From Bacteroidota bacterium (GTDB lineage Bacteria; Bacteroidota; Bacteroidia; Chitinophagales; Saprospiraceae), in NCBI GenBank assembly GCA_011321935.1, contig DROJ01000138.1, forward strand, positions 1 through 60,520: a stretch of DNA of 60,520 nt, given 5' to 3'. The notes under the pieces were generated by a model. That model was not told the origin of the DNA. It did no database searches and saw only the letters and a list, made by a program, of their open reading frames with translations. Position numbers and translations under genes: made by a program. Positions 3,971 to 58,987 of the stretch are shown one piece after another. How positions within the stretch are numbered: position 1 is the stretch's first letter; each line of letters opens with the position of its first letter.

Positions 3971-4133
3971 TGAATTTTTTCGGATTTTTCGAGGGATTCA
4001 CATCCCTTGCCAAGAAATGCCGTCCCTGCGGGACTAGGATTTGGTGTCATCCATCCTAGTCCCGCAGGGACGGCATTTCCTAGCGAGGGATATGAATCCC
4101 TCGAAAAACCGAAAAAACTCACGAAAAAATTCA
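3971..4133. repeat. ~160-bp imperfect palindrome between convergent genes
   Basis: tgaattttttcgg...gccgtccctgcgggactaggat is mirrored by atcctagtcccgcagggacggc...cgaaaaaattca. The outermost right arm contains the stop codon (4131-4133) of the adhesin gene. Confidence 0.75.
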
Positions 4134-7100
4134 CTTCAAAATCACCACATCCCCTTCCCGAAATACCTCCTTTTCCACGCCACAAAAACGCACCCTTGCT
4201 TTCAGGTACCAGGCATAAACGCCCGGGTTCATCGTTTTGCCCTTAAACCCGCCGTCCCAACCATTTGCCGGCTGGCCGGCGAAAAAAACATGCGCCCCCC
4301 AGCGGTTGAAAACATGCAGCTCAAACGACTGAATATCAATGCCTTGCGCCGCATAAACTTGAAATTTGTCATTGACGCCGTCCCCGTTTGGCGAGAAGGC
4401 ATTGGGGATGTAAAAATAAGAATCCGGCTGCCCTTCCGCCCATTTTACGGTCGCTTCAAGCGCCTCCGTTGCGCATTCGTCGCTCACTTCAAAATGGTAA
4501 ATCCCCGCATCTTCCACGGGCATCCAAGCCTCGGACGAGCCATCCTCCCAACGCCAATTTACTGCCCCGGCATGGCTCAAAACGACGGGGCGGACGGTCG
4601 TTTGCGGGTCGTCGCAGGGCAGGGCATAGTCTTCCACCAAAACATCGAGCGGCGGTTTTTCAAGCACTTCCACGGCTTGCATTTCGGCGCAGCCGTTGGC
4701 GTCCTCCACGGCTATTTCGTAAATGCCGCTTTTCAAATTGGCAAAAACAGTTTGCGCCTGAAAGGCCCCTCCGCCGATAGCGCAACGGAAAGGCGGCGTC
4801 CCCGAAAGCGGAACCACCTCGATAGTCCCGTCCCCTTCGTCCGGGCAACTTTCGCTCGGCTGCAGCTCAAAAGACAGCGCCGGAAAAGCGGCCACACTGA
4901 TAAAAACCAGCGAATCGCAGCCCGCCTGATTGTTCAATTCCAAAACCATTTCGTCGCCGGGCAGGAGGCTAAAGCCCTGATAATCAAGGGTATCGCTTTC
5001 GCAAATATTCAATTCCAAGAAAGTGCTGTCCGCCTGCAAAATGCCTACCGACACCACCACCGTCGAATCGCAGCCCCGGAAAGAAGGCAGCACAAATTCC
5101 CTCGTTTCGCCTGCGGCAATTTCGGTGTTGTTGAACAAAATGCTCTCCCCGCCGCAAGCTTCAAATTGCAAAGTGGAAGGTTCGACAACTATCTCCTCGA
5201 CCGACACCACCACCGTCGAATCGCAGCCCAGAAAAGAGGGCAGCACAAATTCCCTCGTTTCGCCTGCGGCAATTTCGGTGTTGTTGAACAAAATATTTTC
5301 GCCGCCGCAGGCGGCAAATTGCAAAGCCGTTTCGATGGCTTGAAGGCAGGGACTATCCAGCAAAAAATCAACGACGGAAGTATCGCCGCAGCCTTCGATG
5401 GAAATATTTTCACTAAAAATAATCGGCGTATAATAGGCCGGCAGGCCGTTGAGGTCAATGCCCAATTGGTAAGCCCCGCCGGGCATTTCACCAAAAAAAT
5501 ACTGGCCGTTTTCGTTGCTGAAAGTATCGGCCAAAGCGGCCCCGTTTTCGGTCAGCAAAACAGGGATGCCGCTCAACAGGCTGTCGGCTGCGTCAACCTC
5601 CCCGTTGCCGTTGAGGTCAATCCAAACGTGGCCGCTCACCTCGCCCTGTTCGGGCAAAATGGAAATGGAGACGGCCTCCGAAACCGTTTCGCAGCCATAG
5701 ATACTGGTCAGGTGGACTTGGTAATCCCCCGTTTCGGTGGCCTCGTAATTGGCTGCGTTGCCCTCCGGCGCAGCGATGGGCGAGCCGTTCAGAAGCCATT
5801 GGTAATCAGCGACTTCGGGCAGGTCGGGCAGGCATATTTCTTTGCTTTCGCAAGCCGTGAAACAGCCCGAAACGAGGTTGCCCAAGCCCGGCGCATTGTG
5901 TATTTCTATCTCGTTGCTCTTGGCTGTGCAGCCAAAAGAATTGGTCGCCAAAACGAGGTAAGTGCCTCCGGCAAATGCACTGATCGAGGTGCCCGTTTGC
6001 CCCGTGTTCCAGAGATAATCATTTGCAGGGTCGGCATTTTCCACAAAAAAATCGGCCTCGCCGCCCGCACACAAGGGGCCCGGCGGATCGGACGAAATAG
6101 AGACCTCCGAGGGCAGGGCATGGACGGAAACCGGAAAGGGTCCGACTACCGCTGTGCAGCCCGAAACCACCTCGGTCACAGTGACCGAAAATTCGTGGTT
6201 GCCGACAGGCAGCAGGCCGCTGCCCTCCTCCGTCAGTGCCAATTGGCCGCCCGTTGTGCCGTCGGGCCACTGATAAAAATAACGCGGGTTGCCGTTCATT
6301 TCCAGATAGACCTCGTTGCCCTCGCAGGTCGAATAGCTGTTCTCGTGATAGGCGGTTGGCTGGCCAAATTCGTTGAGTTCGACTGCCCGGATGAGGGCAA
6401 CAGGGGCGGGCAAAACTTCCAATCCAACGGCAGGCGGGCTGTATTCACAACCTTTTGAATCGGTCAAAGTCACTTCGTAAATGCCTGCTTCAGAGGTAGT
6501 TATGCCCGAACCCGTTCCTCCGCTCGACCATGCCCAAGCCACTCCTCCGGGCGGTGCCTGAAAGCTGGCCTGCGTGCCTTCGCAAATGGGCGCAGGGTCG
6601 TCGGGGGTGATGTTGCCCGAGAGGTCATTGGCTTCGATGGACACGCTGGAGGTGAATGTTTGGCGGCAGCCGTAAATACTTTCGGCGGTCAGTGCCACCT
6701 CAAATTGCCCAGCAAAAGGGTAGGCGTGGTAGGTGTTTTCTTTTTGCGAAAAATTGGCGTCGCCGCTCCCTGCGTCGCCAAAATCCCAGCTAAAAACGGC
6801 CACGTCGGCGGGTGCGTCGGCCTCGAAGTGCAAGGCCGTTGCGGCGCAAAGAGCAGCGGGCGCACCGAAGCTGACCGCAGGCGGCGCATGGATGGTTATT
6901 TCTTTTGAAAATACGGCTGTGCAGCCCTCCGACGAAGTGGCCAACAGGGTGACATTATAGCTGCCCGGCGCAGAAAAAACGTGCTCGGGATGCTGCAAAC
7001 CGGAGGCATTGGCCGAGCCGCTTGCCGGGTCATCGAAGTCCCAATGCCAGCCCGAAATACTGGTGTTGGGCAGGTAATTGGAAACGTCCGTAAATCGGAC

Positions 7101-7977
7101 GGCAAGCCCGGTACAACTGCCTTCCACCTCGAATGCGGCCTGCAGGGGAACGACGATGTCGGCATGTTTTCCGATATAACAGGTTGGTGGACTGCCGTCC
7201 AAATTGGGAGTTTCGATAGCGAGAATGACTGAAAAAAAACCGGGATGGCTAAAGTTGTGGCTTGGATGTTCTTCAACGGAACTGCCATCCTGGAACTGCC
7301 ATTGCCAAGTGCCCGGAATGGCATTTACCGATAGGTTGTTGAATTGAAATTCATTGCAGGTCGTATTGTTCCACGTAAAATCCGCCGTTCCCTGCGGGTT
7401 GCAGGTGCTTGGTGAGGATACCACACATTGCCCGTTTTCACAATGCCCGCCCGCTGCTTCACAGTCAGGAATGTATATCGAATTGGATTGCCCGGTGCAG
7501 CCGTTTTCGTTGGTCACTACCACATAATAAATGCCGCTCTCATTGACGGCAAGAGTGGCTTGGCCGCTGCCCGTTTTAATGCCGTCCTTGTACCATTGGT
7601 ACAGGTAGCCGTTGCCTGTTTGCGTAGCGTAAATAGTAGCGCCTGCGCTTCCCGGGCATAAGCCTCCAACGAAAGAAGGAGCTGAAATAAAAACCTCCGG
7701 TTTCTCTTTTTCGAGGATGGTAAAATTGGTTTTGGAAGAGCAGCCGTTGCCGTCGTCGGCCTCCAGCACATAGCTCCCCGCAGTCAGTTGCGGAGCAGCT
7801 AAGTGGCTGACAACCAGTCCGTTTTGGTTCGTCCATTCATAGCTCTGGTAGCTTTGCAGGGTACTCACTTCGCTGGTTTCGCTTTCGCAAATAAAGACCG
7901 GGAAGTCAACTTCTGGCGCCTCCGGCGAACTTATGTTTACCTCAAAATCGGCCTCGCTTCCGCAGCCGTTCAGGTGG
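4131..7977 (-). CDS. C-terminal fragment of split adhesin (PKD/Ig-like repeats plus gliding-motility-associated C-terminal domain, CHU_C / T9SS type B)
   Basis: The track ORF 4131-7868 starts at a GTG. The same frame stays open to 7977 (IHLNGCGSEADFEVNISSPEAPEVDF...). The C-terminus YIPNAFSPNGDGVNDKFQV...FNRWG...WDG is the CHU_C signature. There is no signal peptide or credible start. Confidence 0.8.
5048..5327. repeat. 153-bp (51-codon) tandem duplication inside the adhesin CDS
   Basis: ccgacaccaccaccgtcgaatcgcagccc... occurs at 5048 and again at 5201. It encodes LQF(A/E)ACGGE(N/S)ILFNNTEIAAGETREFVLPSF(L/R)GCDSTVVVSV twice with very few differences. Confidence 0.85.
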
Positions 7978-8093
7978 ATAGTGGTACAAATCGTAATTAA
8001 CTAACCATTTAGTTTTTTGTTAAATGCCACATTATCAGGGATTTGGCGGACTAATCACTAGTCAACTAATTACTAATCACTGCAATAGTTGCA
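7978..8093. mobile_element. 116-bp half-copy (one arm) of the TAATCAC-word MITE, inserted in the adhesin gene
   Basis: tagtggtacaaatcgtaattaactaaccatttagttttttgttaaatgccacattatcagggatttggcggactaatcactagtcaactaattactaatcactgcaatagttgca is about 90 percent identical to the right arm at 547-659. It supplies the premature stop at 8066-8068 (read-through ...TATIAVISN*). Confidence 0.8.
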
Positions 8094-11000
8094 GTACCTG
8101 CCTGCTGCCAAAAAACCTCCACCTGCGCCGTTCCCTGCCCCCCGGTGATGGCCCCCGCCTGCGGCGGGCTGACCGACCATTCGTAATTTATATTTTCATA
8201 AAAACCGGTTTCGTAAAATGCGGAATTTTCGCGGCAAAGGGAGGCATCGCCGCTGATTTCGAGCCCGGGCAGCGGGGCGGGGTAAACGATAAACGACGGA
8301 GATTGGCAGCCCGGGCTGTTCCAGTCTTCTTGTGAGACAATGAGGGCATAAGGTGGCGAACTTGCCCATTTTACATTGATGGAGCGGCCTGTTTTTTCGT
8401 AAAAATCAATGCCGTTCCTGATGAACCAAGAATAGGTCGCATTTTCCAAATTGGAGGAAACTTGGTAGTTATAGGCCTGTCCGGGGCAGATGTTCATTTC
8501 GCCCAAAATGGTATCGAGGGGAGGGGGCAGCGCAAAGACTTCGACCTGCAGCCCCAACTCCCCGTTGCAGCTTTCCCCTGCGGGAAATGCGCGGACGGAA
8601 TAAGTGCCGGCACCGAAATCAAAGGTCGGATGGATGCCCGTAACGGGGGAGTCGGAAGCCCACATTTCCACCCCGTGCACGTCGTAAATAAACCAATCGG
8701 CTTCCACAAATGGGTAGCCCGAAACTTGGGAGTGGGTGAAGGAAGGACTGCTGCCCTCGCATATTTCTATCGGCCCGTTTATCAGCGTGGGCGGTCTCAT
8801 CTGCAGGGGCAGTTCGCCATTTCCGGCGCAGCCGAGGAAGCAGTTTTGGTAGCTTATTTTTATCAGGCCGGAGGCATTGTTGCCGTCGAAATCGCCCCAT
8901 CGGACGCTGATTTTCGGCGTGCCCTGTCCCTCCAAAATAAGCCCAAAAGAAGGCACTTCCCATTGATAATCAGCGCCTTGTACGGCTTCTATAAAATATT
9001 CCGTTTCAGTATTTGGGCAGACGATGACCTGCCCTTCGATGTCCGTTTGGTTGCTGATGATGGAGATTTTCTGCCGCACTGTTTTCGGGCAAATGTTGCC
9101 GGTGCAGGCCGATACTTGCAGGCTGACATCGCCCGAACTTCCGCCGTTCCATTGGATGGTCACGAAGTCGTCGGCCTGCCCGCCGCCGCTGATTACCGAG
9201 CCGTTCGGGCTGTTGCCCCACTCGTAATTTCCGCAAACAACATTGCTGCGGTAGGTCGCCGTATCGCCCTCGCAAACGGGGCCGAGGCAAAGGATTTCGG
9301 GTATCTCCGCATCCGATACCTCGACCCTAACGGAGGTGGTATCGCTGCAATAGCAGCCGTTGCGGGCGATGAGTTTCACTTCGTAAATGCCCGGTTCGTA
9401 AAAGGTGTGCAGCGCGTCTTTGACCAAAGAAACTGTGCCGTCGCCAAAGTCCCAAATGAAAGAACTGCTTGCCGTGCTGTTGTTGGTAAATTGGACTGTT
9501 TCGGCCTTGCAGAGATCAATGATATTATTGACAGCAGCAGGCACGGAGGTGAAAACGGCTTTTGGTTCTTTTAAAATTTCGATGCAGCGTTGGCCTTCTT
9601 GTTGGCAGTCGGGGGGGCAGGTGAGGGTGATGTATTCGGTGGTGGTTTCGCCGTTGCTGAGGTTGGTGTAGTTGATTTGGTATGGACCGGCAGGAAGTTC
9701 AGTGAATGGAACGAGGGAACCTGGCCCTTGATATTGCAGATATACCGTATCGCTTCTACTAAAACCTGTTTCTAAATTGATTAGGTTTATAAAAAATGGA
9801 TGTGACGGTGAACCACTGATAATTGGAGAAAAATCATTATTGTGGAGTCCCCGAAAAAAGATAATTCCGTCTTCTTCTCCGCATGAAGAAGGGCCGACTG
9901 AATTGGCAAAGGTTTCATAACGGGCTTCTGTGGTTATTTCAACCGAGCATGATTTGGTATTGCCCGTTGCATCCCTGATTTGATATTCATATACACCGAC
10001 ATTTAGAGAAGGTACAACATGGATCTCTCCACTATAAAACTGAGACCAGGACAAGCCGCCGTTTTCTGAAATTTCTATCCCTCCGGCATATGAGTTTCCT
10101 ATTATGAATGAGGCGCCAAGCTGATTTGTTGAATCAATGACCTGTGAAACTTGCCCACAATCCACCTGCAAATAATCCTTATCATCCAAGATAGAAACCT
10201 TGACCTCGCCGCTGCCTGCCTCGCCCCATTCCACGGTTACTTCGTTGCCATTGGCCGTGTAATCAACGCTGCCGTTTACCTCCCAAATGACGGGCATCTG
10301 CTCTGGGTTTTCCACCGAGTAGGTGACGGTGGAATTTTCGCAGACCTTTTCGCAGCTTTCGGGAGAGGAGGGGCAGAGGGAGGTGGATTGGATGGGGAGT
10401 ACAAGGTCGTTTGAAAAAATATACGGCTCGCTGTATTCCCATCCACAGGCGGCGGCATTGACGGCTATCCGAATATGTGTCCAGTTCAGTTCATCGCACC
10501 TTATTAATAAGGTATCGGAACTTGAACCCCCGACCAAGCATTCATTTTGCCCATTTTCGAGGTCAACATAGTTGGTGCCGTCGGCGGAGACCTGCCATTG
10601 GTACTCCGTTAACAAGCCTGCGGGGTCGTTGATCGGCTGCTCCAGTTCTGCGACAAATAGCATTTCTTCGCCCGGCGAAAAACAGCCGTCAAAATAAAAA
10701 TCAGAAACGTAAACATCGGTGTTGGTAAATCCGCAGTCGCAGGGGTCGGAGGCGTTTGGAATGCCGTCGTTGTCAATGTCGGAATCAATTTCATTCGCTA
10801 TTCCATCGCCGTCAAAATCACAGATAGCTCCACATGCGTCAGGGACGCAAGGTTCTAAATCATCTGGGTCAAAAAGCGGATCAGAGGCCAATACACCCGA
10901 GAAATAGCCATCGTTGTCAATGTCACCTCCGCCCGAGCAGCCCTGAGCGACAGTAAAGCAAGCACTCCCATTACAGCCCTGCGCATCCACCGTTTCGACG

Positions 11001-11236
11001 CAGTAAGTCCCCGGTGAAAAAATAGAAATAGCCCAAGGGGAAGCGCTGTTTTCAAATTCCCCGTCGGTGCTGCTCCAAGTGGTGGACGGATAGTATGTAT
11101 TCAGTCCGAGTAGCTGATAAGGGGCGTCGGGGCAGTAGCCTGTTGCTCCAATAATCACCGGGTCGCATTGCCCCACCAATAGAGCAGGCAGCCCGACCAT
11201 TGCAATCAACCAAAGAAAAAGCGCTCGTAAAACCAT
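8066..11236 (-). CDS. N-terminal fragment of split adhesin (signal peptide, thrombospondin-type-3-like Asp repeats, Ig/PKD-like modules)
   Basis: ORF 8066-11245, with ATG at 11234-11236 giving MVLRALFLWLIAMVGLPALLVGQ. Recurrent module ends of the form V.V.W...G...V.V....C. The last 9 codons and the stop are encoded by the inserted repeat. No sorting domain. Confidence 0.8.
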   Translation of the reverse strand: MVLRALFLWLIAMVGLPALLVGQCDPVIIGATGYCPDAPYQLLGLNTYYPSTTWSSTDGEFENSASPWAISIFSPGTYCVETVDAQGCNGSACFTVAQGCSGGGDIDNDGYFSGVLASDPLFDPDDLEPCVPDACGAICDFDGDGIANEIDSDIDNDGIPNASDPCDCGFTNTDVYVSDFYFDGCFSPGEEMLFVAELEQPINDPAGLLTEYQWQVSADGTNYVDLENGQNECLVGGSSSDTLLIRCDELNWTHIRIAVNAAACGWEYSEPYIFSNDLVLPIQSTSLCPSSPESCEKVCENSTVTYSVENPEQMPVIWEVNGSVDYTANGNEVTVEWGEAGSGEVKVSILDDKDYLQVDCGQVSQVIDSTNQLGASFIIGNSYAGGIEISENGGLSWSQFYSGEIHVVPSLNVGVYEYQIRDATGNTKSCSVEITTEARYETFANSVGPSSCGEEDGIIFFRGLHNNDFSPIISGSPSHPFFINLINLETGFSRSDTVYLQYQGPGSLVPFTELPAGPYQINYTNLSNGETTTEYITLTCPPDCQQEGQRCIEILKEPKAVFTSVPAAVNNIIDLCKAETVQFTNNSTASSSFIWDFGDGTVSLVKDALHTFYEPGIYEVKLIARNGCYCSDTTSVRVEVSDAEIPEILCLGPVCEGDTATYRSNVVCGNYEWGNSPNGSVISGGGQADDFVTIQWNGGSSGDVSLQVSACTGNICPKTVRQKISIISNQTDIEGQVIVCPNTETEYFIEAVQGADYQWEVPSFGLILEGQGTPKISVRWGDFDGNNASGLIKISYQNCFLGCAGNGELPLQMRPPTLINGPIEICEGSSPSFTHSQVSGYPFVEADWFIYDVHGVEMWASDSPVTGIHPTFDFGAGTYSVRAFPAGESCNGELGLQVEVFALPPPLDTILGEMNICPGQAYNYQVSSNLENATYSWFIRNGIDFYEKTGRSINVKWASSPPYALIVSQEDWNSPGCQSPSFIVYPAPLPGLEISGDASLCRENSAFYETGFYENINYEWSVSPPQAGAITGGQGTAQVEVFWQQAGTATIAVISN

Positions 11237-11600: not shown

Positions 11601-11605
11601 TTAGG

Positions 11606-11939
11606 TGCCCGGAGCGGGAATCGAACCCGCACGGCCATTACTGGCCACAGGATTTTCGTACCATCTACAACTTTCGCTGCCCCCGCTCCGATCGCTATCG
11701 GGATCGGGTTTGTGGTCTGGACTTTCTCTTCGCCTTGCCTTTCGGTTTAGGCGCCTCCCGTCAAGTCTCTACACCTTTCCCCCCGAGTACTCGGGGGAAC
11801 TTGGCTCGGGATTGCCATCCCGACTCAGGAGTCGGGAAAGGTTTCCCCGAATTTGAGAGGTTCTACTTCCCGGATTTCCCCGGGAGCACTCAAATTGATT
11901 GTTTAAGTCCTGCGTGTCTACCAATTCCACCACCCGGGC
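11606..11939 (-). tRNA. tRNA-Leu: tRNA-Leu(UAA), split by a group I intron (exons 11939-11905 and 11656-11606)
   Basis: The 35-nt 5' exon is GCCCGGGUGGUGGAAUUGGUAGACACGCAGGACUU. The 51-nt 3' exon is AAAAUCCUGUGGCCAGUAAUGGCCGUGCGGGUUCGAUUCCCGCUCCGGGCA. Joined, they give an 86-nt type II tRNA with anticodon loop CUUAAAA, a long variable arm, a GUUCGAUUC T-loop and a 7-bp acceptor stem. Confidence 0.9.
11657..11904 (-). ncRNA. group I intron (248 nt, no ORF) in the anticodon loop of tRNA-Leu(UAA)
   Basis: It starts AAACAAUCAAUUUGAGUG and ends GGUACG (terminal G). Exon ACUU|AAA can pair with intron UUUGAGU, giving a U.G pair at the 5' splice site. Core strings CUCAAAUUCGGGGAAACC, GGCAAUCCCGAGCCAAG, GGUGUAGAGACUUGACGGGAG, AGAGAAAGUCCA and GCAGCGAAAGUUGU match my recollection of the Anabaena tRNA-Leu intron core. 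Confidence 0.85.
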
Positions 11940-12845: not shown

Positions 12846-12895
12846 TGGTAAGCTGTTCAAATAATAGAATGATAAAACCTTGCTCCACTTTTGAG

Positions 12896-13356
12896 CCCCC
12901 GTCTCCGTGCCCTTCCGAAAGAGGGGGAATTTATTCCCCCTCTTTCGGAAGGGCACGGAGACGGGGGCTTGGGGTTCGATATTTTTTCTAAAAAACTAAT
13001 TTCGGGTCAATTTCAAAAGCCGATCTTCGCCCCTCTCGCCGCCGATTTTTCGCGAAGCGCAGCCAGGAATAAATTCCCCCTCTTTCGGAAGGGCACGGAG
13101 ACGGGGGTTTGGATTCGGTGTTTTTTCCAAAAAAACTGATTTTTGATTAAATTCAAAAGCCGATTTTCGCCCCTCTCGCCGCCGATTTTTCGCGAAGCGC
13201 AGCCAGGAGAGAGAGGGGGAATAAATTCCCCCTCTTTCGGAAGGGCACGGAGACGGGGGTTTGGATTCGGTGTTTTTTCAAAAAAAACTGATTTTTGATT
13301 AAATTCAAAAGCCGATCTTCGCCCCTCTCGCCGCCGATTTTTCGCGAAGCGCAGCC
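12896..13356. repeat. 3-unit tandem array (140-170 bp units): GGGAAT-family hairpin + spacer + copy of the last 52 nt of ribH
   Basis: tcaaaagccgat(c/t)ttcgcccctctcgccgccgatttttcgcgaagcgcagcc occurs at 13013-13064, 13153-13204 and 13305-13356. The last copy is the real ribH 3' end. Each copy is preceded by ...ggaagggcacggagacggggg(t/c)ttgg(a/g)ttcgg.... Confidence 0.85.
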
Positions 13357-13820
13357 ATGCGGATGGCACTCACTGCGGCCTCCACGCCTTTGTTGCCGTG
13401 CTTGCCGCCTGCCCGGTCGAGTGCCTGTTGGTGGGTGTTGGGGGTGAGCAATCCAAAAATGCAGGGGATGCCCAATGCCAGTCCCAAACCGGTGAGGCCA
13501 GTGGCCACGGCATGGTTGATATACTCGTCGTGCTTGGTCTCGCCTTTGATGACTGCGCCGAGGCAGATGAGGGCGTTGAGCCTTTTGCCGGAGGCGAGTG
13601 TTTTTGCACCGAAGGGCAGTTCAAAAGCCCCCGGTACTTGGGCAACAAATATGTTTTCCTCTTTTGCGCCATGCTTGACGAGCGTTTCAAAACAGCCTTC
13701 GTAAAGGGCATGGGTGATGTCGGCGTTCCAGTCGGAAACGACAATCCCGAAGCGCATGTCTTCGGCGGAAGGGATGTTTTTTTCGTTGTAATCGGAAAGG
13801 TTTTTTAATGCGGAAGCCAT
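13305..13820 (-). CDS. ribH: 6,7-dimethyl-8-ribityllumazine synthase
   Basis: ORF trimmed to ATG 13818-13820. RFGIVVSDWNADIT, QVPGAFELP, LICLGAVIKGETKHDEYI and AGGKHGNKGVEAA are typical RibH motifs. The C-terminal 16 codons lie in the tandem repeat. Confidence 0.9.
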   Translation of the reverse strand: MASALKNLSDYNEKNIPSAEDMRFGIVVSDWNADITHALYEGCFETLVKHGAKEENIFVAQVPGAFELPFGAKTLASGKRLNALICLGAVIKGETKHDEYINHAVATGLTGLGLALGIPCIFGLLTPNTHQQALDRAGGKHGNKGVEAAVSAIRMAALREKSAARGAKIGF

Positions 13821-13823: not shown

Positions 13824-13892
13824 TTGACGGTTGACGGTTGACGGTTGACGGTTGACGGTTGATCCCGAAGAACTTCGGGAACGGTTGACGGG
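13824..13892. repeat. (TTGACGG)x5 heptamer array plus small hairpin in the ribH 5' region
   Basis: Five exact ttgacgg units (13824-13858), then ttgatcccgaagaacttcgggaacggttgacggg. Confidence 0.8.
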
Positions 13893-49788: not shown

Positions 49789-49823
49789 TGGCCGCACCTT
49801 AATTGGTGCGGCCATTTTTTTTT
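49789..49823 (+). terminator. rho-independent terminator
   Basis: tggccgcacc ttaatt ggtgcggcca followed by a T9 run. Confidence 0.75.
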
Positions 49824-49856
49824 ATTCACCCCCGAAGTTCCGGGGCAGGCTATTCA

Positions 49857-50210
49857 TCATTCGCCATTCTTGATAATCCCCGTCTGCTCACCAAAATAAT
49901 GCACGAATTTCTGCATGTCAACGGCCAGTTCCCGGTTTTGGGTCGCCTTATAATAGGTGTCGGCCAATGAGCGGAGGGTCTGGAAAAAGAAGCGGTCCAT
50001 CTCGTTCACCTGCATATCGTTGGTCCAGAGGTCTATCTTTATGGTATCGAGGCTTTCCTTGTCAAAGAGGGACAACAGCATGGCTTTGCAGGGGGCGGGC
50101 TTGCCCGCGTTGGGGCTGTCGTCGGCTTCCCAGTCCATTTTGACGGGGACGTTTTTATCGTCGAGGCCGATGTTGATGCGGAGTTGCGAGGTCTTGGCTA
50201 TTTTTTCCAT
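49857..50210 (-). CDS. gldC: gliding motility protein GldC
   Basis: ORF trimmed to ATG 50208-50210 (117 aa). INIGLDDKNVPVKMDWEADD...KAMLLSLFDKESLDTIKIDLWTNDMQVNEMDRFFFQTLRSLADTY matches the GldC pattern as I recall it. Confidence 0.75.
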   Translation of the reverse strand: MEKIAKTSQLRINIGLDDKNVPVKMDWEADDSPNAGKPAPCKAMLLSLFDKESLDTIKIDLWTNDMQVNEMDRFFFQTLRSLADTYYKATQNRELAVDMQKFVHYFGEQTGIIKNGE

Positions 50211-50464: not shown

Positions 50465-50818
50465 GAAGGGAACGCAAGGCAGGCTTTATTTCAACGCAAG
50501 GTAGTTTTTTTTCAACGCAAGGCAAAGCTTTATTTCAACGCAAGGCCGCTAGGCCGCAAGGGAACGCAAGGCAGGCTTTATTTCAACGCAACGATGTTTT
50601 TTCAACGCAAGGCCGCTAGGCCGCAAGGGAACGCAAGGCAAAGGTTTTTAGTCCTTGCGTTCCCTTGCGGCCTAGCGGCCTTGCGTTGAAAAAACATCGT
50701 TGCGTTGAAATAAAGCCTGCCTTGCGTTCCCTTGCGGCCTAGCGGCCTTGCGTTGAAAAAACATCCTTGCGTTGAAAAAACATCCTTGCGTTGAAATAAA
50801 ATCACCCTTGCGTTGAAA
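50465..50818. repeat. ~350-bp mega-palindrome built from TTGCGTTGAAA / CCTTGCGTTCCCTTGCGGCCTAGCGGCC words
   Basis: The left half carries (tttcaacgcaa / gaacgcaagg / ggccgctaggccgcaaggg) units. The right half, from about 50650, is their reverse complement in mirrored order. Confidence 0.85.
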
Positions 50819-50858
50819 AGCAGTGCGCCCGTTATTTCGCAGGAGCGGGAAAAAAGGG

Positions 50859-52730
50859 CTACCTTTTTAAAATTTTCAGCACATCGGTTCCCGTCCCTGC
50901 TTCCCCATTTGCCGCAAGGCGAAAAATATTGAAAAAATAAATGCCTGCGGGCAGGCCCGCCATGTCGAGTACAAATTGGTTTTCGCCTGCGGCAAATGTT
51001 TTCTCTCCGGTTTTTAAAACCAGCCCCGCTGTGCTTTGCAGTTCAAACCCGATGTTTTCAGGACTGGCCAGCTCGAATGAAATGCTCGTTTGCCCATCGC
51101 AGGGGTTGGGGAAAGCCCGCAACTTGGCGGCAAAAGAAACTTCCTCGGCAGCGAGGGGCAAGGGCAGGCGCAGGTCCATTGTTTTCGGCAGGTGGTCGGA
51201 GGCGTTGCGCACGTCGAAAGGGGCGAGGCCGTACTGGTCGAGGCGCTGCTGCGACATGGCTTCTGGTTCGAGGGTAAAGGTTTTTTGTACTTCCAAAACG
51301 CTGTTGGAAATGATCTGGTAATCAATGCGGGAAGGGGGGAAACTGCTGGAACTGCTCCTCCAGGTATAGGCCATGCGCTCGTCGCTGTGCCGGCTGATGA
51401 CATCCAGCAGGCCGCTGCCGTCCCAATCGAGGTTTCCGCCTTGCCCGAAGAGGTTGGTGTTGACGACTTCGCCGGTGAGCAGGGTGGTCAGTTGTTGCCG
51501 TTGGCCGACGAGGTTGAGGTCGCCCGAGAGCAGGAAGGGCGTGCCTTCGGGGAGGTCTATCACTCCGCCCGGCGTTTTGGCATCGAGGATGAACTGGACA
51601 AAGGCATCGGCTTCTTGCTGCCTCAAAAAGTCGGCGCCGCAGCACCTCAAATGGCCGTTGATGACCAATAGGTCGGTACTTGAAAGGACTTCGGGGATGT
51701 CAATGAGCGAGGCGGTGAGCCGGTGGCCGGGGAATATCAGCCAGTTTTGGAGGATGGGAAAACGGGAAACGGTGACGTTGCCCTGGTCCAGTTTTACGGC
51801 ATTCCAGGAGGCAAAGTTTTCGAGCGGGACGGCCCCGTTCATAAAGGTGGCTACCTGCGGGGCGCTGATGTCCCAGCACTCGTTGAAAGTGATAATGTCG
51901 GGGTTCAGTATGGCAAGTACTTTTGCAAAAAATGGCTCGCGGGCAATGTCGTCCAGCCCTGTGTTGAGGGTGTTCCACGAAACCATGCGCACGAGGTTTT
52001 GGCCTTCTTTTTCCAAGTTTGTCAACTCAATGGGCGGGGTGGGGGAGTTGTCGAAAAAATAGGTGAAGGGTTCGTTGCTCTCTGGCATTTTGTCGCCGGA
52101 CGGGCCTGTTTCGTCTATCCAAAAAATGCGCACCCCATCGGCGTTGAAAAGGGGGAAACCTGCGTTGGAAAGGGCATCAAGGGGGATGGCGAGTTCAAAA
52201 ATGGAAGAGGTGACCGTGGGCTGGTGCCGGTAGCCGAGTTTGTTCAAGCTCATGGAGCCTTGCCCGCTCGGCAGTTGGTAAAACACTTCCCGCTCGCCCA
52301 GCCTCAGTTCGAGGTCAACACCGATGCCGTTGGCAAAATTGCCGGTGTTGGCGTCCAAATCGGTATCCAAAAACAGGGTGATGCGGTGGCCTTCGGTGAG
52401 GTTGATTTCTTCGGCAACTTCCAGTTGGAAAAAGAGGTGTTTTTCGTCGTTGGCCACTTCAAAGCGGAGGAAGTCAATGTTGTCGCCGTCGTTTTGGGCG
52501 TCGGTAAATTCAACTGCTTCTGCGGTCCAGTCATCGAACTGGCTGTCAATGGAAATGGGGAGGGACTGGGAAAGGGCAGGGGGGGAGAAGGTGAAAAACA
52601 GGACAGCAAAGGTGGCAAGTGATTGCTGCCAATTTATATGATTTGTTTTTTGGAATATTTCAAAAGAGGCAAATTTAAAAAAGGTGCTGCCCCTAAATGC
52701 GGAGATTGTTTTTATCAATTTTTTTTTCAT
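50859..52730 (-). CDS. endonuclease/exonuclease/phosphatase (EEP)-family protein with T9SS type A sorting domain
   Basis: Trimmed to ATG 52728-52730. EEP-like blocks (SWNTLN..., ITFNECW, LLSGDLNL, SDHLP). C-terminus LRAFPNPCDGQTSISFEL...GIYFFNI. Confidence 0.75.
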   Translation of the reverse strand: MKKKLIKTISAFRGSTFFKFASFEIFQKTNHINWQQSLATFAVLFFTFSPPALSQSLPISIDSQFDDWTAEAVEFTDAQNDGDNIDFLRFEVANDEKHLFFQLEVAEEINLTEGHRITLFLDTDLDANTGNFANGIGVDLELRLGEREVFYQLPSGQGSMSLNKLGYRHQPTVTSSIFELAIPLDALSNAGFPLFNADGVRIFWIDETGPSGDKMPESNEPFTYFFDNSPTPPIELTNLEKEGQNLVRMVSWNTLNTGLDDIAREPFFAKVLAILNPDIITFNECWDISAPQVATFMNGAVPLENFASWNAVKLDQGNVTVSRFPILQNWLIFPGHRLTASLIDIPEVLSSTDLLVINGHLRCCGADFLRQQEADAFVQFILDAKTPGGVIDLPEGTPFLLSGDLNLVGQRQQLTTLLTGEVVNTNLFGQGGNLDWDGSGLLDVISRHSDERMAYTWRSSSSSFPPSRIDYQIISNSVLEVQKTFTLEPEAMSQQRLDQYGLAPFDVRNASDHLPKTMDLRLPLPLAAEEVSFAAKLRAFPNPCDGQTSISFELASPENIGFELQSTAGLVLKTGEKTFAAGENQFVLDMAGLPAGIYFFNIFRLAANGEAGTGTDVLKILKR

Positions 52731-52782
52731 AAAAAAATAGGACATGGCTTCGCCAACTGTTGGGAAGATTTGTAGAATGGTC

Positions 52783-52933
52783 ATAACTGTTTAGCACCCC
52801 TCCTGAGGTGATGCCTTTGGGCGGGGAGTGTGGGGGGAAAGGCGTTGCCTCAATTCGATATATTGAGGCAACGCCTTTCCCCCCACACTCCCCGCCCAAA
52901 GGCATCACCTCAGGAGGCGTGGTAAGCAGTTAC
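52783..52933. mobile_element. 151-bp palindromic MITE of the GTAACT-terminus family
   Basis: ataactgtttagcacccctcctgaggtgatgcc...ggcatcacctcaggaggcgtggtaagcagttac. A perfect 8-bp direct repeat GAATGGTC flanks it at 52775-52782 and 52934-52941. Confidence 0.85.
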
Positions 52934-52994
52934 GAATGGTCTTCTTGAAAGTTTAAGTGGTTGCGGCGAAGTTAGGGATTGAAACGGAATTTGG

Positions 52995-55165: not shown

Positions 55166-55206
55166 TAAAAAGCCCCGTTCTTTGGACTAATCCAAGAACG
55201 GGGCTT
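55166..55206 (-). terminator. rho-independent terminator
   Basis: Minus strand: agccccgttcttgg...ccaaagaacggggct stem followed by TTTTT, about 25 nt past the stop at 55230. Confidence 0.7.
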
Positions 55207-55229
55207 TGAAGAAAAAAGCGGAGCAGCCT

Positions 55230-56294: not shown

Positions 56295-56465
56295 AAAAGA
56301 TTTTTTTTGTGATGATAAATTGCTGATTGAAAGATTTTATTGGATGTGCCGTGAAAATTTGAAAGGGCAAAGGTGTGTATCATTGAACACAAATGTAGAG
56401 CATTTTCCAATTTGGTTTTCATATGCCCAGAAAAGGAATTAAAAACTGCCCGACATTTTTCTTGA

Positions 56466-56669
56466 AATGGTTAAATGGCTGAATGGCTGAATGGTTAAAT
56501 GGTTAAATGGCTGAATGGTTAAATGGCTAAATGGCTAAATGGTTAAATGGTTAAATGGCCCTTCCCGCACGTGGACAACTCGTTCGGAAAAACCATTTAG
56601 CCATTCAGCCATTTAACCATTTAACCATTTAACCATTTAACCATTCAGCCATTCAGCCATTAAACCATA
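56466..56669. repeat. ~200-bp hairpin with AATGG(T/C)T(A/G)AATGG word arms
   Basis: There are 11 or more word units on the left and their complements on the right. The loop cccttcccgcacgtggacaactcgttcggaaaaacc is related to the 24594-24710 loop. Confidence 0.85.
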
Positions 56670-56710: not shown

Positions 56711-57808
56711 ATGAACGAGTCGATCACTATAAATCCCGGTTTGAATTTCCGGCCTGTTTTTTTTGCCCGCTACCCAGTGGAGCGGCTCAGCCCTGCTCAG
56801 GTTGATGCGCTTTTGGCCAATGGTTGGTTTCGGACGGGCCTGCACGTTCAGAGTACGCTCGGGAGGTTCGTGGACCAATCTTGGAAGCCATGCCTCATGC
56901 TCCGCATTTCATTGAAAACACTAAGTTGGAAAAAGAAACTGCGGAAAATCATGCGGAGGAACGGGGAAATGTTTGAAGTGAAGATAAGGCCATTTGCCCC
57001 CAGTGCCGAGGTGGAGCGCCTATGGCAGGACTTCAAAACGGGGGTGCATAAATGGAAAAATGTCCCGAACCTGTCTCTCCACTTATTTCGGGGAAGGGAA
57101 CCTTCGGCTTTTAATTCGTGGGAAGTGTGCATTTACAAAAATGGGAAACTTGTTGCTTTTAGTGTTTTTGACAAAGGCGGGCGTTCGATAGCAGGCCTCG
57201 AAGCGGCCTATGATGTGGCCTACCGGAAATACAGCTTGGGCATTTATACGATGCTTGTCGAAATGGAACTGGGCATGGAGGAAGGGCTGTCCTATTACTA
57301 TCCCGGTTTTTATCCAAAAGACAGCCCCATGTTCGGGTATAAAATGCGGACGGGCAATGTCGAATTTTACAGGTTGCGGGAAAATACTTGGCTGCCCTGG
57401 GAGGAACACCGGGCAGCCGATTGGCTGCTCGATGAAGTGTTCGATCAATTGAAAGCACTGGGCAGCAGATTTGCGCGGGACAAGCACAGTGCAACCGTCA
57501 AGGTTTTTCAAAAGAACAACTATCCGGGCCAGCAGGTTAAATTGTCCGATTTTAATTTCCTTTTGGTGGTCAAAGAAGTGGTCAGTAATGGTATGCCGAA
57601 GGTCGTTCAGGTAGCATGGTGCCCCCTCCGCAAGAAATATTACCTGTTTTCACATGTCCCTCCAGGGGAGCATATTTTGAAAAACGGGAACGGGGCTTGG
57701 TTCGGTGTCAATTTGATTTCTTCCCCGTTCCGGCTTGCCGGTGCTTATGGGGATATAAAATCAGTTGAGGCGGCGGCAAAAAAAATGCTGGCAGGTTTCA
57801 GTTTTTAA
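56711..57808 (+). CDS. ATE1/Bpt-like aminoacyl-tRNA-protein transferase family protein with extra C-terminal region (tentative)
   Basis: 365 aa. LLANGWFRTG and YRKYSLGIYTMLVEMELGMEEGLSYYYPGFYPKDSPMFGYKMRTGNVEFY resemble the ATE/Bpt core (SLG...YYYLGY...M.YK..F.P.E). The N-terminal Cys motif is absent. Confidence 0.5.
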   Translation: MNESITINPGLNFRPVFFARYPVERLSPAQVDALLANGWFRTGLHVQSTLGRFVDQSWKPCLMLRISLKTLSWKKKLRKIMRRNGEMFEVKIRPFAPSAEVERLWQDFKTGVHKWKNVPNLSLHLFRGREPSAFNSWEVCIYKNGKLVAFSVFDKGGRSIAGLEAAYDVAYRKYSLGIYTMLVEMELGMEEGLSYYYPGFYPKDSPMFGYKMRTGNVEFYRLRENTWLPWEEHRAADWLLDEVFDQLKALGSRFARDKHSATVKVFQKNNYPGQQVKLSDFNFLLVVKEVVSNGMPKVVQVAWCPLRKKYYLFSHVPPGEHILKNGNGAWFGVNLISSPFRLAGAYGDIKSVEAAAKKMLAGFSF

Positions 57809-57826
57809 AAACTGAAACCTGCCAGC
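57787..57826. repeat. perfect 40-bp palindrome spanning the stop codon (possible terminator)
   Basis: gctggcaggtttcagttttt / aaaaactgaaacctgccagc. The stop taa (57806-57808) is at the dyad centre. No T-run follows. Confidence 0.7.
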
Positions 57827-58526
57827 ATCTCGCTCCGCATTCAGCGGGTTTTGTTAAAAATGTTTGTTTTCAAAAAAAAATGTTTGGCGTAATCAGGGCG
57901 GATGGGAGTTGGAAAATTTCCGTTTTTCAGGGTAGAAGGCATTTTTTTTAGTGCAGGTGCTGGTGTTTTGATACATGTCTTTGTTTGATTATTAACATTA
58001 AAAAATAGTGTACGTGATGTTCCTGTCGCAGGTCATGATGCGCCAAAGCCCTGGCCGGCAGCGCTTATTGTTTTAAGTAAAAATTTGGTGGAAATGAAAA
58101 GGAGAAAACAAAATTGGGAAGTAGCCCGCTAAGGCCAAAAACCATTCCATTCTTCGGGGATTCGGTAAAATGTTCCAACAGTGGCATAGGCGGGCCGACC
58201 GCCACAAGTTTTATGGAATAAAAAAACAAGATGCTCTTTTATACCGGTTGCCGTAAACTTACCTGAATCAAAGCTGTTGGTAATTGGATAGGCACTCTTG
58301 CTGAAGTTTTTTGAAGCAAAGTGTAAATTATACCCATTTGAACAGAACTAATTTTTAAATTTTACGTTGTTTTAAGTATGCATCAAAGAAATAACACTGT
58401 GCTTATTCCCACCTTATTTTTTTCTGAACTACATGAACTTCGATTTACTGAACTTTACCCAAGTCAACTTATGGGCAGGAGGTGTTGGATGTATAAAAAA
58501 GTCAACTGAAATCATTAATTAAAATA

Positions 58527-58883
58527 TTGCAAATGGAACAGGAATACTTTGAAAAAGCAATTGATTGGGCGAGGAAGAGGGGCTTTTCAAACATCAAGGC
58601 AAACCACGAAGATTATGAAGTGCCCGCACATTTTACTAAACCGGGAGAAGACGAACTGGTAATCCCAGACATTACCGGACTGAAAACAGGAGGGAAAAGC
58701 TACATCGAAATAGCTACAAAAACCGACCTGATCCATGACAAAATATCGAAATGGAAACTGCTGAGTTTGCTGGCAGCCAGAAAAGGTGGAAAACTTTTCC
58801 TGCTTGCACCGAGGGGCCACAAGCGTTTTGCAGAAGACATCGTGAAAGTCCACAATCTCAATGCGGAGATCAAAAGTATTTAG
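58527..58883 (+). CDS. hypothetical protein
   Basis: 118-aa ORF (TTG 58527, or ATG 58533). Balanced composition. No family recognised. Confidence 0.5.
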   Translation: MQMEQEYFEKAIDWARKRGFSNIKANHEDYEVPAHFTKPGEDELVIPDITGLKTGGKSYIEIATKTDLIHDKISKWKLLSLLAARKGGKLFLLAPRGHKRFAEDIVKVHNLNAEIKSI

Positions 58884-58987
58884 TGCAGGGATTAGTAAAT
58901 AAGTGAATAGTTGCCAGTCCACCAAACTCTTGATAGCCAAGTGAACGAACTAATCACTAGTTACTTTTTTACTAATCACTCCAATAG
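58882..58987. repeat. degenerate copy of the TAATCAC-word MITE arm
   Basis: tagtgcaggg...gaacgaactaatcactagttacttttttactaatcactccaatag aligns with ...ggcggactaatcactagtcaactaattactaatcactgcaatag of 7978-8093. It begins at the stop codon tag of the upstream CDS. Confidence 0.55.

Follow-up and report, generated by a model that had tools for sequence, protein, structure and literature searches.

Repeats fill the intergenic DNA and overlap gene ends

The window, the whole stretch of DNA analysed here, comprises 60 kb of the genome of a Saprospiraceae-like member of the Bacteroidota, in which short-word tandem arrays, palindromes and small copies of mobile elements crowd the intergenic spaces, extending to gene ends and a few codons into them. 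We merged TRF arrays (score ≥40), inverted repeats (IRs; ≥14 nt, ≥85% identity, ≤200 nt apart) and dispersed repeats into an objective element map, which covers 32% of intergenic bases versus 2% of coding bases. Elements are present in 17/23 spacers between co-directional genes, in 2/3 convergent spacers and in 3/4 divergent ones. A first-pass annotation had placed ten stop codons in or at repeats, and this was borne out: all ten end real ORFs, as indicated by Pfam matches and gene calls on an identical contig, with nine inside a mapped element and the tenth (58881–58883) recovered by alignment. An eleventh stop touching a repeat, that of a GldC-like gene (49857–49859), was absent from the original list. 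The ten cases are mixed and include two gene-end copies, four changed tails, one stop-only overlap and one gene-splitting fragment.

Stops in gene-end copies and dispersed palindromic families

A three-copy, 152-bp tandem repeat at 12894–13357 (TRF 12925–13357, period 152, 3.0 copies, 86%) contains, in its last copy, the native 3′ end of ribH (13305–13357) with its stop (13305–13307); the C-terminus (...KIGF) aligns with that of the orthologue (...SIGFQ) to within one residue of the end. Similarly, a perfect, spacer-less 40-nt palindrome at 57787–57826, evident from the sequence and in the element map, is centred on a stop TAA (57806–57808), and the left arm consists of the final 6–7 codons of that gene itself. 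In thirteen homologues of this gene, the C-terminus falls no more than about 4 residues from this position, and parts of their tails are similar to the window's KKM-LA (e.g. KKI-LA, KKL-LA). Because both repeats copy the gene's own 3′ end, both C-termini are native: these stops do lie within repeats, as first described, but not through insertion. A long palindrome in a convergent spacer (3970–4134, a merged element with IR arms 3976–4040/4053–4117, 65 nt, 89%) reaches, with its outer right arm, the stop TGA (4131–4133, minus strand) of an ORF for a 1,245-aa T9SS protein. The protein's tail (...DVVILK, then stop) is native, so the two share the stop codon and nothing further. This palindrome includes a 12-nt duplication at 4110–4134, and both arms match Rfam Acido-Lenti-1 barely above threshold.

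Palindromic artefacts are possible in metagenome assemblies, and an independent assembly breaks at 13051, its contig ending inside the 152-bp repeat. That the elements reflect chance or fold-back misassembly is nevertheless scarcely credible, given that an independent ENA assembly contains the same sequence over 17.9 kb and a Logan assembly of another run also has it, that elements are internal to contigs, and that MAGs from other projects, built from long as well as short reads, hold equivalent hairpins.

Several families of small MITE-like or REP-like palindromes (F1, F2, F3, F5, F6 and F7) are also found in the window. The full F1 copy, a 438-bp MITE-like element at 216–661, was delineated by TRF arrays (229–260 and 617–648), an internal IR (286–366/510–590), dispersed copies and alignment of its terminal inverted repeats (TIRs), which are built from GTGATTA-type heptamer words. 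A 112-nt right-end fragment of F1 at 7979–8090, 95.5% identical to 546–657, provides ORF 8066–11236 with its final 8 codons (ATIAVISN) and its stop (8066–8068, minus strand). The ORF downstream of the fragment has neither an ATG nor a signal peptide, and its frame is open back into the element; joining both peptides across the fragment extends a PKD_6 match from profile positions 7–66 to 7–80 of 82 and raises its score from 30.2 to 34.3 bits. The fragment splits a formerly single large secreted-protein gene spanning 4131–11236, and the stop, although correctly assigned to a MITE insert, marks an interruption and not a native 3′ end. A short, degenerate F1 derivative at 58876–58993 escapes the element map. 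Its two TIR-like ends align with the F1 TIRs at a mean column identity of 79%, and the stop TAG (58881–58883) falls on TAC/TAT of the TIR of the 438-bp element, in agreement with its first description as a degenerate MITE arm.

An F2 hairpin copy (GCCCTTCCRAAAGRGKGGGAATWWATTCCC) at 16159–16201, identical at 40/40 positions to 60213–60252, carries a stop TAA (16190–16192, minus strand) in the loop of GGGTGGGAA/TTCCCACCC, with the last 3 codons (GWE) in the stem; the F2 pattern has nine matches in the window versus 0 in shuffles, which also speaks against chance. The protein of this TPR-SDR gene is 7 aa longer (NDPEGWE) than its orthologue in the related genome L003. F3, a palindrome with a 65-nt tandem copy (23390–23587; IRs I13–I15, TRF, dispersed repeats), begins 9 nt past the stop of a GMC oxidoreductase gene and has a second copy at 42481–42620. 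The F7 palindrome (AATAGCYTGCCCCGRAACYTCGGGG), flanked by AAATGA words, lies at 25597–25722 (IR I25, arms 25599–25645/25676–25722, 98%); the stop TGA (25600–25602) occupies its first bases, and relative to its L006 orthologue the protein gains 1 aa (K). An F7 half-copy (49826–49859, minus strand), found by reading the sequence, stands directly after the stop TGA of the GldC-like gene, which has a GldC Pfam match, with TGA-ATAGCCTGCCCCGGAACTTCGGGG there versus TGAAAATGAAA-ATAGCTTGCCCCGAAACCTCGGGG at 25600.

Dispersed families with near-identical copies, an F1 TIR on the stop of two genes and an F7 start directly at TGA in two others are in line with MITEs that insert preferentially at stops or at the 3′ ends of genes, via a TA(A/G) target for instance, and bring their own stop; Coxiella QMITE and enterobacterial RU-1 offer precedents. 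We regard such targeting as quite improbable, however: members of these families turn up in divergent spacers, ahead of starts and within a gene as well; gene-end copies account for two of the ten cases; orthologous hairpins have genome-specific words, unlike copies of one element; and no target-site duplications were seen.

Word arrays and hairpins

A composite word-repeat hairpin at 19295–19580 (TRF 19307–19341, 19391–19437 and 19501–19580; IRs I16 and I21) consists of AGAGTTTG/GTTTGAGAGA words, a core hairpin and CTCTCAAA words, and holds the stop (19564–19566) and last 5 codons of a thioredoxin-like gene, whose tail QSLRE, encoded by GAGAGTTTGAGAG words, differs from those in L003 and L007. 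At 24594–24713, TRF, IR detection and the element map delimit a hairpin of (TTAAATGG)×4.2, a GC-rich core and complementary words; the stop TAA (24603–24605) of a GFO gene lies inside its second word, and the protein ends in LNG where orthologues instead have 5–8 residues (RSARQ, QTSIIQTK or ESLNQQ). Words of the same family form the largest AAATGGTT word hairpin, at 56465–56668 (TRF; IR I2, 78-nt arms, 95%), with 12 + 10 words and word variants in mirrored order; it lies downstream of no stop because it is located in a divergent spacer. A 354-nt palindrome of AACGCAAGG-type words at 50466–50819 (IR I1, TRF, element map) has 109-nt arms that are 99% complementary and stands 39 nt from the stop of gene 50859–52784.

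The description of these elements as hairpins does not extend to the direct heptamer array (AGTGATC/AGTGATT)×7.4 at 27322–27373 (plus strand, TRF), which begins on the stop TGA 27324–27326, has no inverted partner, and, on the minus strand, differs from TAACTGA dimers at one to two positions; the tail at this stop was compared with the sole available orthologue, which is 45% identical. Another direct array, (GTGATTA)×10 at 20920–20994 (plus strand; TRF and element map), lies 15 nt upstream of the start of the thioredoxin-like gene with its C/A-rich form on the sense strand; a second sequencing run (L002) contains it as well. Likewise, the claim that the words stop every frame applies to those of period 7 or 8, but not to AAATGA, which has period 6 and closes one reading frame only.

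Elements contact stops and avoid starts

In the window, mapped elements contact 9/36 stops versus 1/36 starts. When each element was placed randomly within its own spacer with a 25-nt overhang allowed, 4.85 stop contacts (P(≥9) = 0.018) and 4.68 start contacts (P(≤1) = 0.012) were expected. Elements approach five starts to within 3–15 nt and never cross one.

At the same junctions, L003, L007 and L006 have plain spacers of 1–40 nt: the junction at 19295–19580 is about 40 nt and repeat-free in relatives, and the genes flanking 24594–24713 stand 1 nt apart in L006. C-terminal tails are altered by 0–7 residues only, past each protein's conserved part. The first-pass annotation had suggested insertion that is targeted to gene 3′ ends, or only tolerated there, with rewriting of tails. 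Orthologue alignment identified four tails changed by 1–7 residues (7 aa added in the TPR-SDR protein, QSLRE, LNG, and 1 aa added in the gene ending at 25602) and native C-termini at ribH, 57808 and 4131. Because divergent and convergent spacers are also filled and relatives' junctions are plain, tolerance with short tail rewriting is supported and targeting is not; elements in every spacer type and so near to starts, one split gene and two gene-end copies point the same way.

A family-wide phenomenon with a junction hot spot

We surveyed one conserved orthologous operon junction across 62 related genomes, yielding 62 unique spacers, of which 31 are ≤24 nt and 31 expanded. The expanded spacers consist mostly of 7/8-nt word arrays or hairpins, with period-7/8 arrays in 22/31. 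The phenomenon is family-wide. Words change in concert, differing even between genomes in which the flanking protein is 92–96% identical, and copy numbers vary among near relatives. Between L066 and L074, a stem of 28 pairs carries 4 double changes and no broken pair; L117, L152 and L154 contain direct, partnerless arrays. As only 11/255 stops lie in elements at the same loci, this junction is a hot spot.

Arm polarity, RNA signals and terminator features

Of 27 word hairpins, 26 have a G-rich, C-poor and stop-rich 5′ arm and a G-poor 3′ arm, whereas in other palindromes the G side is split 5 versus 5. The stop-richness of the words follows from the G-rich, C-poor composition of the 5′ arm. 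Leaders are G-poor across all these genomes. This polarity could reflect adaptive design instead of just a filter, and it gives a factual kernel to the earlier proposal of stop-plus-hairpin cassettes.

Ordinary Rho-independent terminators that coincidentally overlap stops would account for very stable hairpins downstream of genes, and canonical examples exist in the window (49790–49830, 55172–55212 and about 60000–60040). Those, however, have 6–8 T in the 8 nt past the stem, compared with 0–3, and hence no U-tract, after the word hairpins and palindromes. The hairpin stems, of 60–150 pairs, far exceed what a terminator needs, and many of them separate tightly linked co-directional genes or occur in divergent spacers, making this reading very improbable.

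Alternatively, word hairpins may be functional operon RNA elements, acting in translational coupling or, as in REP sequences, in mRNA protection or processing. In the coupling model, the stop sits at the 5′ base of a stem that ends 5–10 nt before the next ATG, such that the terminating ribosome melts the hairpin and exposes a sequestered G-poor leader lacking a Shine–Dalgarno sequence; selection would act on structure and polarity only, leaving words free to turn over. The geometry fits: in several genomes, pairing at two orthologous junctions starts −2 to +4 relative to the stop's end, with 10 nt from stem to ATG. All four substitutions between L066 and L074 are compensatory, although template switching predicts this equally (PMC8794818). 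Among strong hairpins at the surveyed junction, sense RNA is the more stable in 9/11 (G-U pairs, 43 versus 28), and the hot spot, the uniform polarity and the stop enrichment over random placement agree with a functional role. RNA folding nonetheless revealed no overall strand preference (sense stabler in 11 hairpins versus antisense in 14; G-U pairs, 52 versus 46), and a pooled G-U test for a sense-strand signal was not significant. Moreover, one in two orthologous junctions measures ≤24 nt and has no hairpin, partnerless arrays are common both there and in the window (27322, 20920), hairpins also occur in divergent spacers and far from starts, and the 99% identity of 100-nt arms points to recent events at the DNA level. 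A functional-RNA role therefore seems unlikely to us. We found no evidence for the cassette as a mobile or functional unit: its hairpins have no U-tract and no robust sense-strand RNA signal, and relatives lack them at these junctions.

Origin of the repeats and comparison with known systems

Stop overlap is thus a real and mostly tolerated side effect, neither targeted nor a proven stop-plus-hairpin device. Non-coding DNA was probably filled by in-place word growth together with MITE/REP spread, and then filtered by selection. In the first process, arrays of 7–8-nt words would grow in place by replication slippage, while intra-strand template switching would create inverted copies and keep them complementary, producing word-repeat hairpins, spacer-less palindromes and tandem units that may include a gene's own 3′ end; in the second, families F1, F2, F3, F5, F6 and F7 would spread. 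The data show the positions, the changed tails, presence that is lineage-specific, concerted and compensatory changes in the words, and the polarity; that slippage and template switching drive the process, and that selection filters the outcome, we infer. The native ribH end within a 152-bp unit, the 40-nt palindrome on a C-terminus of native length, the 109-nt arms, the mirrored word variants and the lack of an overall RNA strand preference support an origin at the DNA level.

Selection would decide where elements survive, permitting spacers to be filled end to end. Crossing a start codon, or placing G-rich sequence in a leader, would be barred; crossing the upstream gene's last few non-conserved codons would be allowed if a stop follows soon. 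Start-facing 3′ arms would be G-poor because leaders in these bacteria are, and stop-facing 5′ arms C-poor as their complement; ORFs would end inside repeats because TGA, TAG and TAA abound in C-free words, and a period of 7 or 8 closes all three frames. Several points weigh against this explanation: stop contact above symmetric random placement, the hot spot, the more stable sense RNA of most strong hairpins there, and the uniform polarity, which could be adaptive; in addition, neither a transposase nor a target-site duplication was obtained.

Overall, the interpretation given in the first-pass annotation was only partly sustained. The closest known likenesses concern two kinds of element. 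For the word arrays, these include the heptamer intergenic repeats of MacGregor 2015; heptamer arrays have stops in all frames and overlap ORF ends, and relatives are repeat-free (PMC4679880). The other likeness is to MITEs overlapping gene ends, which are known to overlap 3′ ends by 1–50 bp (PMC5896051), with removal of the native stop by an RU-1 element (PMC2759123). Hairpins created and maintained by template switching have likewise been described (PMC8794818).

Stop codons within repeat elements

The window encodes type IX secretion (T9SS) cargo with CHU_C and Por_Secre_tail domains, a GldC-like protein and ECF sigma factors (Pfam), and its GMC oxidoreductase shares 74-79% identity with genes of Saprospiraceae MAGs. 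Identical stretches recur in a hydrothermal-vent metagenome contig (17.9 kb) and in an assembly of a different sequencing run (1.4 kb), which excludes an artefact of a single assembly. The gene set comprised 36 protein-coding genes, with stops taken from the ORF list and starts refined through gene calls on the identical contig, signal peptides and orthologue alignments. Repeat elements were mapped independently of gene positions, by merging tandem arrays (TRF), inverted repeats and dispersed repeats, and covered 32% of intergenic bases versus 2% of coding bases.

The first-pass annotation had placed ten gene ends inside repeats. All ten proved to be stop codons of genes; nine lie inside a mapped element, and an alignment puts the tenth (58881-58883) on the terminal inverted repeat (TIR) of a 438-bp MITE-like element at 216-661 (family F1). 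An eleventh case, the stop of the GldC gene (49857), adjoins a half-copy of a hairpin family that also starts at the stop at 25602. Across the 36 genes, elements touch nine stops versus one start, the latter by 1 nt. Under a null model in which each element fell at random within its own spacer and could overhang it by 25 nt at either end, the expectation was 4.85 stops (P = 0.018 for at least nine) and 4.68 starts (P = 0.012 for at most one). Relative to random placement, elements in the window thus show a modest excess at stops, accompanied by a deficit at starts, and the occurrence of stops in repeats is real and beyond chance.

In loci from related genomes, with the ascertained junction excluded, elements hold 11 stops and 9 starts out of 255 each, the start overlap being overstated because starts there are those of the longest ORFs. 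Set against this background, the 25% of window stops held by elements is an extreme load. About a quarter of the window's genes have C-termini, stops or even integrity (as in the split T9SS gene described below) set by repeats; for annotation, protein ends in such genomes are therefore not to be trusted at face value.

The identical contig has a gene call for the 110-aa ORF at 25735-26067 (+). This ORF lacks a Pfam match as well as an orthologue in any fetched locus, is largely a 132-nt palindrome (arms 25749-25798 and 25831-25880), and may not be a real gene. In-frame tandem repeats, each 92% identical, lie within the coding sequences of a T9SS protein (5047-5326, 153 nt x1.8) and a TPR-SDR protein (17076-17275, 93 nt x2.2). 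The tRNA-Leu(UAA) gene at 11604-11939 (-) is split between anticodon positions 34 and 35 by a group I intron of 248 nt (11657-11904), an arrangement typical of cyanobacteria and plastids that occurs here in a Saprospiraceae-like contig; Rfam Intron_gpI scores it at 49.8 bits (threshold 50, E 1.9e-11), and ARAGORN detects the tRNA only once the intron is removed.

Gene ends copied, rewritten or split

The ten cases are heterogeneous, with no single phenomenon behind them. The C-terminus of ribH (...KIGF) aligns with that of an orthologue (...SIGFQ) to within one residue of the orthologue's end, indicating that the native 3′ end was duplicated within the 152-bp tandem unit. Likewise, the protein that terminates at 57808 matches 13 homologues in length to within about 4 residues, and their tails resemble its KKM-LA in places; the perfect spacer-less 40-nt palindrome at its stop is therefore a copy, in inverted orientation, of the final 19 nt of the gene.

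Elsewhere, orthologue comparison revealed altered tails. The TPR-SDR gene (16190) is extended by 7 aa; its three terminal codons lie in the stem of a hairpin of the dispersed family F2 (16159-16201), which is identical at 40 of 40 positions to a copy at 60213-60252. In the thioredoxin-like gene (19564), GAGAGTTTGAGAG words encode the last five residues; in the GFO gene (24605), LNG replaces 5-8 unrelated residues; and the gene ending at 25602 is one residue longer than its orthologue. The proposal that repeats rewrite C-terminal tails thus holds for short tails at these four genes and fails at ribH and 57808, where native ends persist. At 4131 only the stop codon is shared with the repeat. The stop at 27326 lies in a direct heptamer array without an inverted arm and that at 58883 in a degenerate F1 copy; neither tail has a close orthologue, and the alignment of the 27326 protein with a paralogue ends at residue 280 and is uninformative for the tail.

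The stop at 8066 falls in a 112-nt F1 fragment, 95.5% identical to the full F1 copy, that sits within a PKD-like domain. The ORF downstream has neither an ATG nor a signal peptide, and its frame is open back into the fragment; joining the peptides across the fragment extends the PKD_6 match from profile positions 7-66 to 7-80 of 82. On these grounds, the ORFs of 1059 and 1245 aa at 4131-11236 (-) appear to be one T9SS cargo gene of ~2300 aa split by the MITE fragment.

Word hairpins at operon junctions of relatives

Using the fetched loci as controls, we found that orthologous junctions in other Saprospiraceae genomes carry the same kind of hairpin, made of inverted arrays of short 7-8-nt words (word hairpins). 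After a GMC-family gene in five MAGs (protein 95-96% identical), one word hairpin makes up the whole spacer to the following gene, running from the stop codon to a few bases short of the ATG, with words that differ per genome. A metagenome scan with the GMC-family protein yielded 80 further loci and 62 unique spacers, 31 of which are at most 24 nt long and 31 of which measure 32-486 nt. Arrays of period 7, 8 or multiples occur in 22 of the 31 expanded spacers, about eleven of which form strong hairpins; three loci (L117, L152, L154) have a direct array only. Words differ even where the flanking protein is 92-96% identical, and their copy number differs between near relatives (L138/L148 and L057/L071). 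Compared with the background of relatives' stops, this junction is a hot spot. The loci concerned are L055, L057, L066, L071, L074 and L083-L162 (e.g. L066 11432-11508).

At a second junction, comparison of L066 with L074 revealed a C-to-A change in every left-arm word and the matching G-to-T change in every right-arm word, amounting to four double changes and no broken pair in a stem of 28; a third genome has GTGATTR words at this site. Word-repeat hairpins at operon junctions are accordingly a family-wide, fast-evolving class; a literature search of limited extent turned up nothing on palindromic repeats of Saprospiraceae.

Arm polarity and word composition

Of 27 word hairpins in the window and loci L055-L151, drawn from at least 14 word families unrelated to one another, 26 place the G of their G-C pairs on the 5′ arm (e.g. 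13:0, 25:2, 22:6); in other palindromes G polarity is balanced (5 versus 5). Since reverse-complementing an inverted repeat leaves its polarity unchanged, this is an intrinsic property: whichever strand is read, the C-poor arm comes first and the G-poor arm second. The 25 nt upstream of starts are G-poor in all these genomes (G 0.125-0.132, C 0.185-0.214). If a start-facing arm must be G-poor, its complement would be C-poor, C-free words would be rich in stops, and a period of 7 or 8 would close all frames. A G-poor leader, acting through the C-poor 5′ arm, can in this way explain stop-rich words without selection for stops.

The initial description of the repeated words as stop-rich and closing every frame fits the C-free words of period 7 or 8, but several word families (GAAATTGG, GGTATTG, GTTGTTC and ACGCAAAG) have no stop at all. 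We rejected stop enrichment as independent evidence, because it follows from the C-poor 5′ arm and some families are stop-free. The cause of the polarity may be either a selective filter or the generating mechanism. In its uniformity, arm polarity links repeat expansion, template-switch palindromes and the G-poor, Shine-Dalgarno-less leaders of Bacteroidota.

Targeting versus tolerance

Insertion targeted to gene 3′ ends, one of the explanations first put forward, does not fit the observed distribution. Elements occupy every type of spacer of at least 40 nt (17 of 23 co-directional, 2 of 3 convergent and 3 of 4 divergent) and approach five start codons to 3-15 nt but cross none of the five, and relatives have short, plain spacers: the spacer after the thioredoxin-like gene is ~40 nt in L003 and L007 versus 299 nt in the window, and that after the GFO gene is 1 nt in L006 versus 157 nt. 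L003 qualifies only partly as a repeat-poor relative, as it carries its own arrays at 2 of the 10 stops. Targeting is thus not supported, and the pattern fits elements that arise or land anywhere and persist where harmless; the 3′ edge of a gene is flexible, since a replacement stop is soon provided. Tolerance together with tail rewriting is therefore upheld in modest form.

Probable DNA-level origin and possible function

Folding both strands, in the window and relatives, gave 52 versus 46 G-U pairs and a more stable sense strand in 11 of 25 hairpins, and hence no overall strand preference. The GMC junction gave a weak signal, its strong hairpins favoring the sense strand (9 versus 2; G-U pairs 43 versus 28). 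All four stem changes between L066 and L074 are compensatory, an outcome that template switching predicts as well. Recent DNA-level events, probably of template-switch type, are indicated by arms 109 nt long that are 99% complementary, by word variants that recur in mirrored order and by perfect palindromes that have no spacer.

Canonical intrinsic termination was rejected for the word hairpins and palindromes because they lack a U-tract: the 8 nt after the stem contain 0-3 T (5 in the case of the degenerate F1 copy at 58883), versus 6-8 for canonical terminators in the same sequences. At gathering threshold, Rfam returned for the window only a tRNA and two marginal matches to Acido-Lenti-1 (RF01687; 38.6 bits at 3990-4035 (+) and 37.5 at 4058-4103 (-), threshold 37), and no family explains the elements. 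These matches fall on both arms, and both strands, of the palindrome at 3976-4117, which suggests a repeated hairpin rather than a strand-specific RNA gene; the Acido-Lenti-1 'sRNA' motif may itself be a repeated hairpin element.

The second explanation first offered, that repeats act as combined stop-plus-hairpin cassettes, is weakened by the missing U-tract and the lack of an overall strand signal and kept alive by arm polarity and the junction hot spot; a functional module of this kind remains a minority possibility. In its fullest version, which we consider improbable, Saprospiraceae and related Bacteroidota would harbor intercistronic hairpins of an undescribed class, hypervariable in sequence but with position, architecture and polarity conserved, that serve as orientation-independent stop-plus-hairpin modules gating or coupling downstream translation. 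The stop-rich, C-free 5′ arm would start on the stop codon, and the 3′ arm, free of G and of start codons, would end just before the next ATG; such modules, made of locus-specific 7-8-nt words and renewed by slippage and template switching, would act in organisms without Shine-Dalgarno initiation. Hairpins acting on translation or mRNA fate would constitute a new regulatory device; hairpins without function would be a clear natural example of mutation bias and translational constraints shaping non-coding DNA.

Relation to known elements

Family F1 (216-661) is MITE-like in being small (<~500 bp) and non-coding, with ends that align at ~90% as inverted repeats, a result that covers F1 and leaves the locus-specific word hairpins apart. 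Dispersed near-identical copies exist for F1 (three copies or fragments), F2 (nine pattern matches) and four other palindromic families, F3, F5, F6 and F7 (two or three each), and not for word hairpins with locus-unique words. Reading of the window sequence revealed no clear target-site duplication flanking F1, Pfam found no transposase domain among the window ORFs scanned, and an exact IUPAC pattern search found no further F2 copies in JGI metagenomes. Two stretches, 60078-60291 and 52781-52935, have common termini of the form AACTGYTTAGCACC... / ...GGTGCTAAGCAGTT; the former encloses two F2 hairpins and so looks composite or nested. Family F5 (GGTAGCACRGC...GCTGTCC) occurs in the window (27483-27599 and 36526-36612) and in L003 (9877-9975), a Saprospiraceae MAG of another lineage, so at least one dispersed family is older than the species.

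In Neisseria, Correia elements are MITEs that overlap gene 3′ ends. Coxiella QMITE1 and QMITE2 extend 1-50 bp into the 3′ ends of functional genes (PMC5896051), and among enterobacterial RU-1/ERIC-like units RU-1 can remove the native stop (PMC2759123); small palindromic repeats at 3′ ends sometimes replace the native stop and add residues (PMC5896051, PMC2759123). The overlaps of F1 at 58883 and F2 at 16190 are of this type, whereas most overlaps here involve locus-specific word arrays or gene-end copies rather than one conserved element, and no parent IS or target duplication was found for the window elements. BrickBuilt of Porphyromonas gingivalis, a MITE with an internal minisatellite, is likewise a Bacteroidota intergenic element that joins tandem repeats to small inverted ends; unlike the elements here, it is one conserved family with 23-nt units that always lies 49-591 nt from coding sequences and so overlaps no stop (PMC4596501).

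Template-switch (quasipalindrome) mutagenesis creates and maintains hairpins (Monttinen and Loytynoja 2022, PMC8794818) and, with no need for selection, accounts for perfect palindromes that lack a spacer, arms mirrored en bloc and compensatory changes of several bases. Matching patterns occur here at 57787-57826, at 50530-50761 and between L066 and L074, although template switching is a mutational mechanism rather than an element family and is inferred from these patterns alone.

As with the REP/BIME/REPIN palindromes of Proteobacteria, extragenic palindromes are abundant here between co-directional genes and at 3′ ends. REPs are palindromes of 20-40 nt, conserved in sequence across a genome and linked to RAYT (Y1) transposases; here stems span 26-290 nt, reaching 100 nt and more, sequences are locus-specific, and Pfam detected no RAYT in the window. 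REPs within 15 nt of stop codons reportedly stall ribosomes, a finding of Liang, Rudd and Deutscher in 2015, and by analogy the closeness of palindromes to stops would plausibly affect the terminating ribosome.

Heptamer repeats, the STRR sequences of cyanobacteria, were reportedly described by Mazel et al. in 1990. Intergenic TAACTGA arrays occur in Beggiatoaceae, Cyanobacteria and five Bacteroidetes (MacGregor 2015, PMC4679880): forward words stop in all three frames and so overlap the end of the upstream ORF by a few codons (13-14 sets), arrays lie near start codons, close relatives have shorter repeat-free spacers, and only one inverted repeat is found among 170 sets. The present arrays agree in being tandem 7-nt words in spacers, stop-rich in all frames in one orientation, placed by starts and stops and missing from close relatives. 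Exact TAACTGA repeats are absent from the window, whose GTGATCA/GTGATTA words lie 1-2 mismatches from TAACTGA dimers (best matches 20955-20968, 27327-27340 and 27348-27361). Two direct arrays, CCGTCAA x5.6 (sense strand) at 13824-13862 and AACTCAA x4.7 at 21839-21872, lie upstream of the ribH and GMC starts at 3 and 5 nt, respectively; C/A-rich and stop-free on the sense strand, both resemble the start-proximal arrays of MacGregor 2015. Unlike those heptamers, the window and its relatives use many 7- and 8-mer words, which at a given site often vary from genome to genome and are commonly arranged as inverted arrays that form long hairpins of fixed G-rich-5′/C-rich-3′ polarity. In a literature search of limited extent, we found no description of long inverted word arrays, hypervariable words at conserved junctions or uniform polarity. 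Stops inside repeats, by comparison with Coxiella QMITEs, RU-1 and the MacGregor arrays, are a known kind of event.
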